From positions 1-46,717 of the forward strand of contig JBQLZK010000038.1 in assembly GCA_052168235.1 (NCBI GenBank): a stretch of 46,717 nucleotides of DNA, written 5' to 3'. The notes beneath the pieces are model-generated. The model was not told the DNA's origin. It worked only from the letters and a program-made list of their open reading frames with translations, and made no database searches. A program made the translations under genes and the position numbers. The stretch comes from Thainema sp. (lineage in GTDB: Bacteria > Cyanobacteriota > Cyanobacteriia > Phormidesmidales > Phormidesmidaceae). The first letter of the stretch is position 1. The number at the start of each line of letters is the position of its first letter. Positions 20,258-26,400 of the stretch are shown piece after piece.

Positions 20258-20463
20258 CCTGCGTGCAAGTTTTTAGAGCATTGCGCGTTCTCAGTTACTT
20301 GGGGGACTCCGCTGGTGAGTTCTTACACACTCTTTCAAGGATGGCTACTTCTAAGCCCACCTCCCAGGTTCTTCGCACTCCCCGTTTACAAGCGCCCACT
20401 GCATGGCAGCGTCACGTTTCCTCTCGTACTCGTATGTAGGCTCCACAGTTTAGGGCACGCAGG
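20258..20463 (-). ncRNA. Y-RNA-like unit U1 carrying 23S sarcin-ricin loop and H42-H44 GTPase-associated-centre mimics
   Basis: Terminal stem CCUGCGUGC/GCACGCAGG; AGUACGAGAGGA at 20430-20419; CUGG-GAGGUGGGCUUAGAAGUAGCCAUCCUUGAAAGAGUGUGUAAGAACUCA-CCAG at 20367-20312. Confidence 0.85.
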
Positions 20464-20467
20464 ATAT

Positions 20468-20484
20468 ATACTACAAATACTACA
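20468..20484 (-). promoter_or_regulatory. Tandem TGTAGTAT boxes overlapping the predicted -10 of the U1-NADAR-E2like-ThiF unit
   Basis: ATACTACA at 20468-20475 and 20477-20484, 4 nt from the U1 5' end. Confidence 0.65.
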
Positions 20485-20698
20485 AGCAAAATAATCGCTT
20501 TCCGGATGATTGTTCAAGGGGATTTTGGTAAATGTTCAGTCCCAAATAGGACATGCGCCCTAATAAAGATTACTGGAGTCATTCCCGCCCCAAAGAGACT
20601 GTATAGCAGAAATACACGCGTACTAATCCTGTCTAGAGAGAGACGGCAACGCCCAATCAGATGCGTTACAAGGGAAATGGAAAGATGGGAGATTAAAC

Positions 20699-21082
20699 AT
20701 GCCTGTAAAAGAGCTACGTAAGAGCACCATGATGGCACATTTGCTAGATGCGTTGGATGCCGACCAGGATATTCAACATTATGGAAGACTTGTTTTTGCG
20801 ATGGTCGCGCACCATTTTATGGACGAGGAGGAACTAGTAAGCTATCTACAAAAAGGTGGCCATATCAGTGAAGCAGAGGCTCGATCGCTTTATCAGCAGG
20901 TGCAAGCAAAAGACTACAACCCACCCAAACGCGATCGCATTTTGGAGTGGCAGCAGCAGCAAGAGTTTACCATCTGTCCCAATGCCGATGATCCAGATGC
21001 GTGTAATGTTTACAAGGATCTACAGTTTCCAGATCAAGTGTATGAGCACATTTCAGAATATTATGAGCAGAAAGCAACCTAG
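20699..21082 (+). CDS. Hypothetical protein
   Basis: 127 aa with GGGAG SD; HYGRLVF, YNPP and ICP....D.CNVY motifs. Confidence 0.8.
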   Translation: MPVKELRKSTMMAHLLDALDADQDIQHYGRLVFAMVAHHFMDEEELVSYLQKGGHISEAEARSLYQQVQAKDYNPPKRDRILEWQQQQEFTICPNADDPDACNVYKDLQFPDQVYEHISEYYEQKAT

Positions 21083-21110
21083 TAAAAGCAGCTTGTTTGA
21101 TAGTTTGCCG

Positions 21111-21446
21111 TCATGAGAGAGAGGAGAGTTGCTGTAGGGGATACCTGGCTCTAGTTTTGAGGATATTCAAATTATCCACTTGTGCCAGTAAGCGGTCGAG
21201 TGTTGCAGTTTCGCTAGCGGACAACTGATCTTCTGTATTCTGAGCTAGTAGCGCGCCAAGTTGAGTTTGTTCAGCCGAAGCAAGCTGACTGTTGGCTAAT
21301 GCCTGTAATTCCTCCAAGCTTAAGCCTGTCAAAAGCTCCTCGTCAGATGTAGCAGGACTCACAAGACGGTGATGGGTTTCCAAATCAAGCAAAACCCCGA
21401 CTCGCTCTCCTTGTTGATTTGTTATGTACTGCACAGCTTCAGACAT
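21111..21446 (-). CDS. Hypothetical protein with antitoxin-like N-terminus
   Basis: VQYITNQQGERVGVLLDLE resembles N-termini of small antitoxin-like proteins; no adjacent toxin recognised. Confidence 0.65.
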   Translation of the reverse strand: MSEAVQYITNQQGERVGVLLDLETHHRLVSPATSDEELLTGLSLEELQALANSQLASAEQTQLGALLAQNTEDQLSASETATLDRLLAQVDNLNILKTRARYPLQQLSSLS

Positions 21447-21619
21447 GACTCTCTCTATTCAAGTTAGATTAATTCTGACAGGGTTGAGTAAAAATCACTG
21501 TCACTTCATGGACTTTCTTCATGTCGATTATTTACACAGTTTTTGAAGTGTGGTCGAATTTAGCGTCCCGTGCCAAAATAATACAGATGAATAATTTAGT
21601 TATTGTAAGAGGCTAAGGT

Positions 21620-22627
21620 ATGCGATATGCAGTTTGGAATAATAAAGGTGGAGTTGGTAAAACCTTTCTTTCATTTGTATTAAGCACAGAATTTTCTCAT
21701 GCCTTTCCCAGTAGAAATGTAATTTTAGTAGATATGTGTCCACAAGCCAATGTTTCAGAGATTATTCTCGGTGGCAATGGATCGGGTGGTGCTGAAAAGC
21801 TTAATCAGCTTATTGAAGATAGGAAAACAGTGGGAGGGTATTTTGATGAACGTATTAATTCACCACAAAAGCCTACTGAGACGGAAACAAACTATTTACT
21901 AAAAGTACAAGATTACAACTCTAATGTGCCTCCCAATTTGTGGTTGCTTGCTGGTGATCCAAGCCTCGAAATTCAAGCCCAAGTTATTAGCCAGATTAGT
22001 GCACAAACTTTGCCTGTAGAATCATGGAAGAATGTTCATAACTGGTTAAAAGATCTTGTATTAAGCTGTTCAGACAAATTAGGAGAAGATGTAACAGTTT
22101 TTATTGATTGCAATCCTAGTTTTTCAGCATATACGGAGCTTGCGCTTGCAGCAGCAGAACGAATTATTGTACCTTGTACAAGCGATGATTCTTCAGCTAG
22201 AGCTATCAATAATATCGGTGCACTAATATATGGAGTTGGTGTTGATTCCGCTTATAGTACCGTGAATTTTTCTGGTAAGGCAAAAGTATTTGATATGCCT
22301 TTGCCAGAGCTACATTGCGTTGTTTTAAATCGCTCAACTCAATACAATCAAAAAGCAAGTAAGGCTTTTGCTGCTATGTTTAAGGCTATTCAGGAAAGAG
22401 TGAATGATTTGGGGGAAAAAGAAACATTTGTTGCTTCAGGTGAAGAGGTTAGCTTTCAAGAGATCCCAGATAGTCATTCTGTTACGATTGTTTGTTCCCA
22501 TTTAGGAAAGCCTTTGTACAGTATTACACCAGGTAAATACGAGGTTTACGATACAAATCCTCAAGTGAATTCAGAGCCTATAGATCGATATAAAGAAGCA
22601 GTAGCTGCTTTGCTCTCAAAGATTTAA
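21620..22627 (+). CDS. ParA/Soj-family ATPase (orphan, AT-rich)
   Basis: NNKGGVGKT deviant Walker A, VDMCPQAN, FIDCNPS; no parB nearby. Confidence 0.88.
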   Translation: MRYAVWNNKGGVGKTFLSFVLSTEFSHAFPSRNVILVDMCPQANVSEIILGGNGSGGAEKLNQLIEDRKTVGGYFDERINSPQKPTETETNYLLKVQDYNSNVPPNLWLLAGDPSLEIQAQVISQISAQTLPVESWKNVHNWLKDLVLSCSDKLGEDVTVFIDCNPSFSAYTELALAAAERIIVPCTSDDSSARAINNIGALIYGVGVDSAYSTVNFSGKAKVFDMPLPELHCVVLNRSTQYNQKASKAFAAMFKAIQERVNDLGEKETFVASGEEVSFQEIPDSHSVTIVCSHLGKPLYSITPGKYEVYDTNPQVNSEPIDRYKEAVAALLSKI

Positions 22628-22637
22628 GTATATTCTA

Positions 22638-22676
22638 ATCAAGAGTGCGCTAAGGCAAATATTAGGCACTCTTGAT
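22638..22676. terminator. Hairpin between convergent parA-like and Ro-like genes
   Basis: ATCAAGAGTGC...GCACTCTTGAT. Confidence 0.55.
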
Positions 22677-22680
22677 ATAT

Positions 22681-25609: not shown

Positions 25610-25618
25610 GAAATCTTC

Positions 25619-25819
25619 TTAGCCATAGACAGCTTCTGGACGAATAATTAAATCTCCACTGGGACGGCGATCCACAACATAAGCAGAGAGCCGATTCGCA
25701 TGAACATCCAAATGCTGAGAAATACGCTCTTTTACCGCAATGTCATTCATACCAGTTGTAATTCCCAGTTGAGTTTCGGTCACGTCAAATGAACGACCTT
25801 CAAAGCGAATATGAACCAT
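25619..25819 (-). CDS. Small ubiquitin-like (beta-grasp) protein ending in Gly
   Basis: 66 aa; pattern strand(VHIRF)-strand(SFDV)-helix([12 protein letters not shown])-strand(YVVD)-strand(LIIRP)-EAVYG; SD AGGAGG; fold is inferred. Confidence 0.75.
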
Positions 25820-25845
25820 TGCTGTTACCTCCTTTCATCGAATAG

Positions 25846-25916
25846 GTGAGGCGTGAGGAGCGAGGCGTGAGGCGAGTTTCAGTAACTCAGCATTCAGCAC
25901 TTTCTACTCAGCACTA
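25846..25916. repeat. Heptamer-repeat (STRR-like) tract
   Basis: GTGAGGC-type x4 followed by ACTCAGC-type x4. Confidence 0.65.
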
Positions 25917-26008
25917 AATTTCTGGGTTGCTTCATCTGGGGATGAATTTGGATATAGGAGTGGTGCCCCTAAATCTCAGTTCATCCCTAAAATCAGCAAT
26001 GCCAAGTT

Positions 26009-26085
26009 TGGGGTGACTGACGAGAGTCGAACTCGCTAACACTGGTGTCACAAACCAGCCCCTCCACCGCTTCGGGTTCAGTCAC
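26009..26085 (-). tRNA. trnH: tRNA-His (GUG), CCA encoded, no genomic G-1
   Basis: GTGACTG/CAGTCAC acceptor, C73, CCA; CTGGT-TTGTGAC-ACCAG anticodon arm; GCGAG-TTCGACT-CTCGT T arm. Confidence 0.9.
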
Positions 26086-26087
26086 AG

Positions 26088-26161
26088 TGGATTCTGGTCG
26101 GATTTGAACCGACATCTTTCTGCTTGCAAGGCAGATGCTTTCCCAATTAAGCTACAGACCC
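26088..26161 (-). tRNA. trnA: tRNA-Ala (UGC) with 1-nt bulge in acceptor stem
   Basis: GGGTCTG...TAGCTTAATTGGGAAAGC; TCTGC-CTTGCAA-GCAGA; GTCGG-TTCAAAT-CCGAC; 3' CAGA(A)TCCA. Confidence 0.85.
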
Positions 26162-26171
26162 AAGATGAGGG

Positions 26172-26277
26172 TAATATCAATTCCGTGTATAAGAACCCTG
26201 TTTATTTTTTGTGAAATGCTTACTAAGCAAGCATTTCACAAAAAATAAACAATGGGTTTTTAACCGGATTTTATATA
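26172..26277. repeat. Palindromic MITE-like element (family copy 2, inverted relative to the 10314 copy)
   Basis: GTTTATTTTTTGTGAAATGCTT...AAGCATTTCACAAAAAATAAAC. Confidence 0.75.
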
Positions 26278-26280
26278 AAT

Positions 26281-26400
26281 GTCGTGCAAGTTGAAAAAGC
26301 TGTTGATTCATACACAGGACTTGAACCTGCAATCGACTGTTCTAGAGACAGTTGCCCTACCATTAGGCGAGTATGTAAGCTTTTTCGATCAGGGCACGAC
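26281..26400 (-). ncRNA. Y-RNA-like unit U5 with embedded tRNA-like cloverleaf (anticodon CUA)
   Basis: Stem GUCGUGC/GCACGAC and AAAAAGCU/AGCUUUUU; D arm GCCU-AAUGGU-AGGGC; ACUGU-CUCUAGA-ACAGU; GCAGG-UUCAAGU-CCUGU; acceptor CAUAC/GUAUG continues into the scaffold with no CCA. Confidence 0.85.

Follow-up and report, generated by a model that had tools for sequence, protein, structure and literature searches.

Why should a gene for a protein resembling Ro60/Rsr lie among several small RNA units with the same ends, and what do these units carry? The question is raised by a stretch of 46,717 nt from Thainema sp. (assembly GCA_052168235.1, contig JBQLZK010000038.1, positions 1-46,717, forward strand), referred to here as the window, in which five such units, U1 to U5, accompany a gene for a 477-aa protein. 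The analysis reveals one covarying terminal handle, one Ro-fold protein, and folded cargos that are copies of tRNA, of the factor-binding centre of 23S ribosomal RNA (rRNA) and of 23S helices 67-71. The features at the centre of the question are the following.

20258..20463, minus strand: U1, handle with the core of the 23S sarcin-ricin loop (20419-20430), then the GTPase-associated centre, helices H42-H44 (20312-20367)
22681..24114, minus strand: Ro60/Rsr-like protein, 477 aa, helical ring and vWA (profile search, AlphaFold, Foldseek)
24246..24433, minus strand: U2, handle with a multi-hairpin cargo that includes a pseudoknot of CUCC/GGAG type; lies immediately 5' of the Ro-like gene
24458..24604, minus strand: U3, handle with a tRNA-order cargo and a hairpin inserted in the T loop
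25428..25609, minus strand: U4, handle with 23S helices 67-71 copied in circular permutation, the opening being at the helix 69 (H69) loop
26281..26400, minus strand: U5, handle with a tRNA-order cargo (D arm, anticodon arm with CUA, T arm)

A common handle at the ends of five RNAs

The 5' and 3' ends of U1-U5 share one architecture, a stem, an internal loop and a second stem, and all five pairs of ends listed by an earlier note on this DNA were found on the minus strand where it had placed them. Across the host assembly of 7.54 Mb, a strict 5' pattern returned U1-U5 and one look-alike lacking the 3' end, while a looser scan pairing 5' with 3' ends added one chance-like match and one cross-pairing of U3 with U2. 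The handle is thus confined to the Ro locus and is not a genome-wide mobile repeat unrelated to Ro loci. Compared with 60 shuffles each, the folding z-scores were -1.4 for U1, -5.5 for U2, -3.7 for U3, -4.0 for U4 and -3.1 for U5.

Covariation was assessed in 51 units, namely 49 hand-picked from 77 listed together with U3 and U5. Changes on both sides occurred at 11 of 13 handle pairs, in 160 cells against 48 ± 7 after shuffling, a number reached in none of 500 shuffles; the compensatory variation claimed for the outer pairs is thereby confirmed. The 97% pairing in this set is inflated, as the units were selected for pairing. The invariance claimed for the loop and linker residues holds among U1-U5 but not family-wide, since the linker ends in UAA in the minimal class and reads UACAAAC in distant members. 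What is invariant in 51 of 51 aligned units is the closing C-G pair, the loop A, UACA-A and ACU-G. Loop and linker letters stay constant while the stems vary, as a protein site would lead one to expect. In some classes the linker is more than a free spacer: in 77 of 92 tRNA-order units, 5-7 of its 7 positions are paired as an acceptor-like stem, and in U1-type units it closes the sarcin-ricin loop.

The proposed likeness to the Ro-binding helix of Y RNAs stands as far as architecture is concerned, but the GNCGAA motif is absent from U1-U5 and none of the Rfam Y RNA models reaches its cut-off. The modular reading, a constant handle with a variable payload, is well supported, and it is tied to the Ro-like gene. 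On these sequence patterns, the handle RNAs are very probably real and bound by Ro.

The neighbouring protein is a divergent Ro

Pfam recognized only weak vWA matches in the 477-aa protein, and the TROVE family (PF05731) had no match anywhere in the host genome. The best PDB sequence match was the Ro60 of phage phiLo (residues 35-394, E 0.018). A profile built from 81 homologues matched human, phage, Xenopus and Deinococcus Ro60 with E-values from 5e-17, obtained for the human protein, to 2e-8. The AlphaFold model has a pLDDT of 90.8, and the first 12 Foldseek matches listed are all Ro60/Rsr chains, with TM scores of 0.62-0.72. Basic residues are conserved on helices 98-171. Because the family profile and the predicted fold of the protein, which Pfam TROVE misses, both match Ro60, it is, by homology and model, a divergent Ro.

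Handle and Ro-like protein occur together

We found 298 Ro loci in genome contigs and examined the best 80 of the 298 for handle units: 78 of these 80 have 1-6 units, 275 in total, a few of which are two merged units, and all lie on the strand of Ro. Across the phylum, 301 genomes were surveyed: 35 encode the protein, 34 have the 5' pattern and 32 have both, so that the pattern occurs in 32 of 35 protein-positive genomes but in 2 of 266 protein-negative ones; these counts include kin and hence are not independent. Two of the three protein-only genomes contain fragments of the pattern, and one of the matches in the two pattern-only genomes is chance-like. The reversed 5' pattern gave no match in the 301 genomes. 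A relaxed scan of 94 additional metagenome and viral loci found 115 units in 56 loci, including a handful that look spurious, among them the three on the minus strand, and none in reversed sequence. Viral scans for the handle pattern yielded 0 and 1 stretch.

The cargo sets differ among close relatives. In most Nostoc-type loci, a bare unit of 66 nt takes the position of U2, and many related loci possess additional cargos in the order of YrlA, the class labels coming from rough regular expressions. A viral contig (L217, 6756-7000) carries a 246-nt handled unit with a multi-hairpin cargo. The loci of relatives adjoin long tRNA arrays, and in one such array beside a Ro locus (L004, 5896-6065) we noted a partial match to tmRNA (24.4 bits, E 6.5e-6).

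U1 joins two distant sites of 23S rRNA

At gathering level, Rfam reports four tRNA matches and one 23S match in the window, the latter inside U1. The references for rRNA were E. coli and two cyanobacterial 23S copies, the host assembly having no assembled 23S gene. In a blastn comparison of rRNA with 219 loci, sense matches recurred only at 23S 1050-1110, 1916-1941 and 2650-2669.

The first cargo letters of U1 are a 12-nt match to E. coli 23S 2654-2665, which we take to be the sarcin-ricin loop (SRL), the rRNA helix names being those of general knowledge. Alone, this match is weak (longest-word test, 12/200 shuffles; nhmmer E 0.48), and we assign it because it is conserved across the family and not by the score of a single sequence: the letters of 2654-2664 are retained in 25-26 of 26 aligned copies, and A1067 and A1095 in all 26. 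The second part of the cargo, at 20312-20367, scores 53.1 bits with the Rfam LSU model, above the cut-off, and a profile of the U1 family meets cyanobacterial 23S at E 8e-14. The order is reversed relative to 23S, bringing together two sites that lie 1,600 nt apart. Across the loci examined, 58 of 62 occurrences of the SRL motif follow a handle.

In 23S rRNA, C1072, C1092 and G1099 form a base triple (PMC8614978, excerpt). The same positions read U/U/A in 24 and U/U/G in 2 of the 26 U1 copies; the two cyanobacterial 23S genes retain C/C/G. We presume that U/U-A is a structural equivalent of the original triple. Pair 1058-1080 is G-C in 17 copies and A-U in 9. This change and the concerted swap of the triple argue that the fold of U1, beyond its letters, is under selection. 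We rejected U1 as a ribosomal-protein leader, as the genes downstream encode a NADAR protein and an open reading frame (ORF) without an assigned family. More divergent units combining the SRL with the L11 site are present in two relative loci (L207, ~3980-4200; L036, ~10590-10810) and would be of value in studying covariation.

U4 rebuilds helices 67-71 in permuted order

Over 22 nt, at 25555-25576, U4 is identical to E. coli 23S 1916-1937 (0/200 shuffles). Its 3' side holds the letters of 1834-1838 and 1904-1911, which restore the H69 stem; scored alone, these pieces are within noise, and their assignment is made because of pairing and position. The H69 stem of the U4 type changes on both sides at 2 of 6 pairs in 18 copies. 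An H69 motif lies behind a handle in 32 of 34 cases across the loci examined, and five of the six SRL or H69 cases without a handle are handle variants. One relative locus (L094, ~3380-3590) has an H69-type unit in which the H69 loop is intact and the opening point differs from that of U4.

A colinear decayed fragment or pseudogene of 23S was ruled out for both U1 and U4, as their segments are reordered and compensated. To judge from the aligned letters, U1 and U4 are almost certainly structural mimics.

The cargos of U3, U5 and U2

U5 matches the Rfam tRNA model with 50.6 bits at 26306-26377 and is also called by ARAGORN; its linker forms a 6-bp acceptor-like stem, and it has no CCA end. The anticodon position reads CUA, which in a rough script was the most frequent among tRNA-order units (19 of 92). 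In U3, ARAGORN draws a cloverleaf at 24485-24578, and the T-loop insertion is absent from the closest relative locus. We rejected both as canonical tRNA genes, as the linker supplies their acceptors, which have 5-6 bp and lie within the handle, in place of a free 7-bp stem with a 3' end. Later processing of U3 and U5 to free tRNA ends may occur.

The U2 cargo comprises three or four hairpins and a pseudoknot, with two-sided changes at 17 of its 39 pairs among 21 sequences; its ACC/GGU hairpin is only 75% paired. A search of 401 genomes with the U2 pattern gave 23 matches, of which 20 are in Ro loci, one has a 5' handle at a contig end and two are unrelated. Rfam provided no meaningful match for U2, and sequence comparisons did not support its being copied from 16S or 23S rRNA or from a known Rfam family. 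A likeness of U2 to SRP, RNase P or tmRNA would be a hunch.

Permuted handles in a huge phage

In the huge phage LR756511.1, which encodes a Ro of 47% identity, there are 15 linker motifs and six circularly permuted handles. A tetraloop closes these handles; one is set into a tRNA D loop and another precedes the start of Ro. An H69-type unit in this phage is longer. If a motif survives permutation, it would be a structural site rather than a signal for end processing. A phage unit of ~320 nt (L130, 8687-9003) combines an H69-H70 motif with many extra hairpins and is possibly a larger copy of domain IV.

Partner genes and surroundings of the locus

Further features of the locus are listed here.

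18230..18868, minus strand: ThiF/E1-like adenylating enzyme (Pfam ThiF, 90 bits)
18865..19692, minus strand: 275-aa protein with an invariant GICL cysteine motif (neighbourhood counts, alignment)
19685..20125, minus strand: NADAR protein (Pfam), an occasional neighbour
20468..20484, minus strand: two TGTAGTAT boxes, directly upstream of U1
24609..25340, minus strand: 243-aa protein without Pfam match, a partner in cyanobacterial loci only
25622..25819, minus strand: putative ubiquitin-like (beta-grasp) protein, 65 aa, Gly end (structure comparison, neighbourhood counts)
26012..26474, minus strand: three free tRNA genes around U5 (Trp 26402-26474, Ala 26089-26161, a third 26012-26085; Rfam, ARAGORN)
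26557..26603, minus strand: three TGTAGTAT boxes overlying a promoter-like site that precedes the cluster from U5 to Ro

Neighbourhoods were counted in 52 long cyanobacterial, 15 distant metagenome and 15 viral Ro loci. Beside Ro, the 65-aa ubiquitin-like protein occurs in 51, 12 and 8 of these, respectively, the 275-aa protein in 48, 14 and 12, and the ThiF/E1-like enzyme in 48, 11 and 9. The 243-aa protein is found in 44 of the cyanobacterial loci and in none of the distant or viral ones, and NADAR in 5 of the 52. RtcB was rejected as a core partner (1/52, 0/15 and 0/15).

Structure comparison (VIA) of the single-sequence model of the 65-aa protein gave beta-grasp folds as matches, at a modest Z of 5.8 for the best one (the tool's mark being 8; rmsd 2.9 over 60 aligned residues), and most of 42 homologues end in Gly. 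Of the components of ubiquitin-like conjugation, the E1-like enzyme is present, and no E2 or JAB family was detected among the locus partners. In the 275-aa protein, C255 is invariant in 47 aligned sequences, and no match was found in Pfam, NCBIfam, PADLOC, PHROGs, PDB or Atlas. Its GICL motif may resemble an E2 motif, and an E2-like role would be a guess from sequence. A predicted complex of Ro with the 275-aa protein scored 0.59 against 0.00 for the best control, on a scale whose mark was attained for 116 of 157 solved pairs and for 2 of 215 mismatched ones, with 18 of the solved pairs and both mismatches at 0.60 or below; the prediction runs agreed in at least 76% of contacts, with a partner pLDDT of at least 79. 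The model lends weak support to docking.

As the four genes accompany one another in loci ranging from cyanobacteria to phages, and because of the Ro/275-aa prediction, one could imagine RNA-programmed protein tagging, in which a bait-loaded Ro ring would act as a substrate adaptor docking the 275-aa protein, and the E1-like and ubiquitin-like proteins would mark whatever takes the bait, be it a toxin, a defence nuclease or a translation factor. We regard this as speculative and rather unlikely; if true, it would be a categorically new RNA-guided tagging system.

The sequence TGTAGTAT is named as a TrcR site in an excerpt of PMC10272220. Six of its 55 copies in the genome are in the locus, before the cluster, before U1 and before the rtcB region, and a box lies within 45 nt of 29 of 40 related U1-type units. 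An RHH-like protein (26880-27341, plus strand; Pfam RHH_1 E 0.015, below cut-off) is encoded between the RNA cluster and rtcB; from its sequence, it is a possible TrcR-type repressor, and its gene is absent from the 52 related loci examined. Between U1 and the Ro gene (20464-22680) lie a ParA-like gene, a RelB-like ORF and one further ORF; the ParA-like gene is likely an insertion because it is found in none of the 52 related loci. Just beyond the E1-like gene, 15668-17701 (plus strand) encodes a 677-aa protein with RTX calcium-binding repeats. The long inverted repeats after U5 (26176-26275) and after U1 (20151-20250) are dispersed genome-wide, at 167 and 84 sites, and are separate from the handle-RNA system.

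What the RNAs may be for

Our best explanation, held tentatively and with a little less than even confidence, is a divergent Ro60-Y RNA system under translation stress, in which Ro would hold a panel of baits for proteins that recognize tRNA and rRNA, attackers first. Relief of a TrcR-type repression would switch on the cluster, and the RNAs would be excised or transcribed as units. The Ro ring might grip each RNA by its handle, protecting it and holding the cargo outward, where it could bait those that attack or dock on tRNA and rRNA, toxins and defence nucleases first, and so spare the true ribosomes and tRNAs. The co-inherited ubiquitin-like set may tag the captured proteins. Whether baiting attackers would be the main job seems to us evenly poised.

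We prefer the bait reading because the module occurs in phages, which face RNA-cleaving defences of their hosts (PMC7824862, excerpt); because relatives adjoin tRNA arrays, suggested in part of PMC8421152 as possible sponges for toxin RNases, and TrcR boxes lie in the locus; and because the handle is portable, as its permuted copies in LR756511.1 illustrate. Several points weigh against it. The H69 loop of U4 is opened and the letters past 1941 are unlike 23S, so some known target sites are uncopied. U1 folds weakly by itself, and a nuclease directed at the SRL would not obviously need the adjacent L11 site, whereas a translation GTPase would. Anticodon-loop letters, in rough calls, vary widely among tRNA-order units. 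The exact repeat patterns given in the accessible part of PMC8421152 are unmatched at the promoters of the locus, and the occurrence of RtcB in a single related locus leaves a coupling to repair unsupported by the neighbourhood. GNCGAA appears in none of the five window units and in only 3 of 432 units counted in a partly redundant list, in which CCGA alone appears in 105. Finally, we infer both the binding of U1-U5 by Ro and their expression.

The main rival, which we consider unlikely, is a tether or sponge for the cell's own machinery, storing partners or damping translation in stress; with the same reserve, the partners could be L11, L10 and EF-G/EF-Tu for U1, RRF or rRNA-modifying enzymes for U4, and tRNA-binding enzymes for U3 and U5. 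U1 would suit such a role in that it unites the SRL with H42-H44, the docking site of translation GTPases, with the tertiary fold retained, and a two-module logic is established for Y RNAs, with Rsr tied to PNPase (10.1101/312249, in the part available). On the other side, the many tRNA-type baits in huge phages fit counter-defence better than a damping of translation, and the variation of cargo sets among close relatives is reminiscent of an arms race.

Less probable still is a platform for RNA repair or processing, on which the handle would mark RNAs for end processing or ligation and the mimics would be practice substrates or damage sensors switching on repair genes. Here rtcB is only 2 kb off, behind the same boxes, and canonical Ro genes occur in rtc operons (excerpts of PMC4201824 and PMC7824862), but RtcB and NADAR are rare in related loci, with the counts given above, and permuted handles are internal to their RNAs, away from any end. 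We attach slightly less weight yet to cis-acting leaders, by which Ro would bind handles in its own transcript for the control of processing or translation, the cargos being secondary. Most loci place one unit immediately before the Ro start, and a permuted handle precedes the ribosome-binding site of the phage Ro; selection on the rRNA tertiary contacts of U1 would stay unexplained, as would up to 15 units per locus. A mobile repeat with captured, decaying rRNA and tRNA fragments, to which the small insertions in U2 and U3 and the dispersed inverted repeats beside U1 and U5 might point, is scarcely credible given a handle found at the Ro locus only, its near absence from protein-negative genomes, and rRNA pieces that are reordered and covary.

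Comparison with known systems

The closest relative of the system described here is the YrlA/Rsr system (RF02553), with which, as far as partial sources go, it shares a paired-end handle with a loop, a separate effector module, a Ro-fold neighbour and at least two RNAs per locus. Related loci add cargos in the YrlA order from T arm to D arm, whose Rfam scores of 41.1, 37.1 and 29.1 bits are below the cut-off of 69; within the window, Rfam found no match to YrlA. The handle described here is without the GNCGAA given for YrlA in an excerpt of PMC4201824, and the cyanobacterial YrlA rows in the portion of its supplement available have proteins of 533-534 aa and another 5' motif, in contrast to 477 aa here. 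Cargos copied from rRNA, forward-order tRNA cargos and permuted handles likewise set the present system apart, as do 1-6 units per cyanobacterial locus and 15 in the phage. We therefore rejected filing U1-U5 under YrlA, the motif and Rfam tests having failed. For the tRNA-like module of YrlA, the available part of 10.1101/312249 describes the partner as not known.

The Ro60 of Thermus phage phiLo with Yrl1/Yrl2 (PMC12135203; PDB 9KOP, 9L5Y) is alike in combining Ro with stem-bulge-stem RNAs, but these have a CGAA motif, and the excerpt of that paper includes neither rRNA cargo nor ubiquitin-like partners. The TrcR regulon and trn L-array of Anabaena PCC 7120 resemble the locus in TGTAGTAT promoter boxes, extra tRNAs, and rtcB with an RHH gene nearby (PMC10272220, PMC8421152; excerpts). 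The term 'Y RNA' is absent from the main texts of both papers, and YrlA and Ro60 from the main text of the latter. Full-text searches of the open literature, which took in few supplements and not the 2016 survey of RNA repair, found no Ro-associated rRNA mimic and no such operon.

Leaders of ribosomal-protein mRNAs mimic the protein-binding sites of rRNA, in cis and within ribosomal-protein operons. The units of this locus differ from them in their closed handle, their non-ribosomal neighbours and the joining of two distant sites in reverse order. Prokaryotic ubiquitin-like conjugation operons (the E1-E2 models of PADLOC) have a beta-grasp modifier ending in Gly and an E1-like enzyme. The locus has the E1-like enzyme and a candidate for such a modifier, here coupled to a Ro ring and mimic RNAs.

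The roles of Ro60 ribonucleoproteins beyond Deinococcus are open, and one handle with a panel of cargos lets handle and cargo be tested apart. A natural RNA of ~200 nt that joins the SRL to the L11 centre, together with a rebuild of helices 67-71, offers ready probes for the binding of factors and toxins. The ubiquitin-like link provides a testable path from RNA recognition to protein modification, in bacteria as well as in phages.

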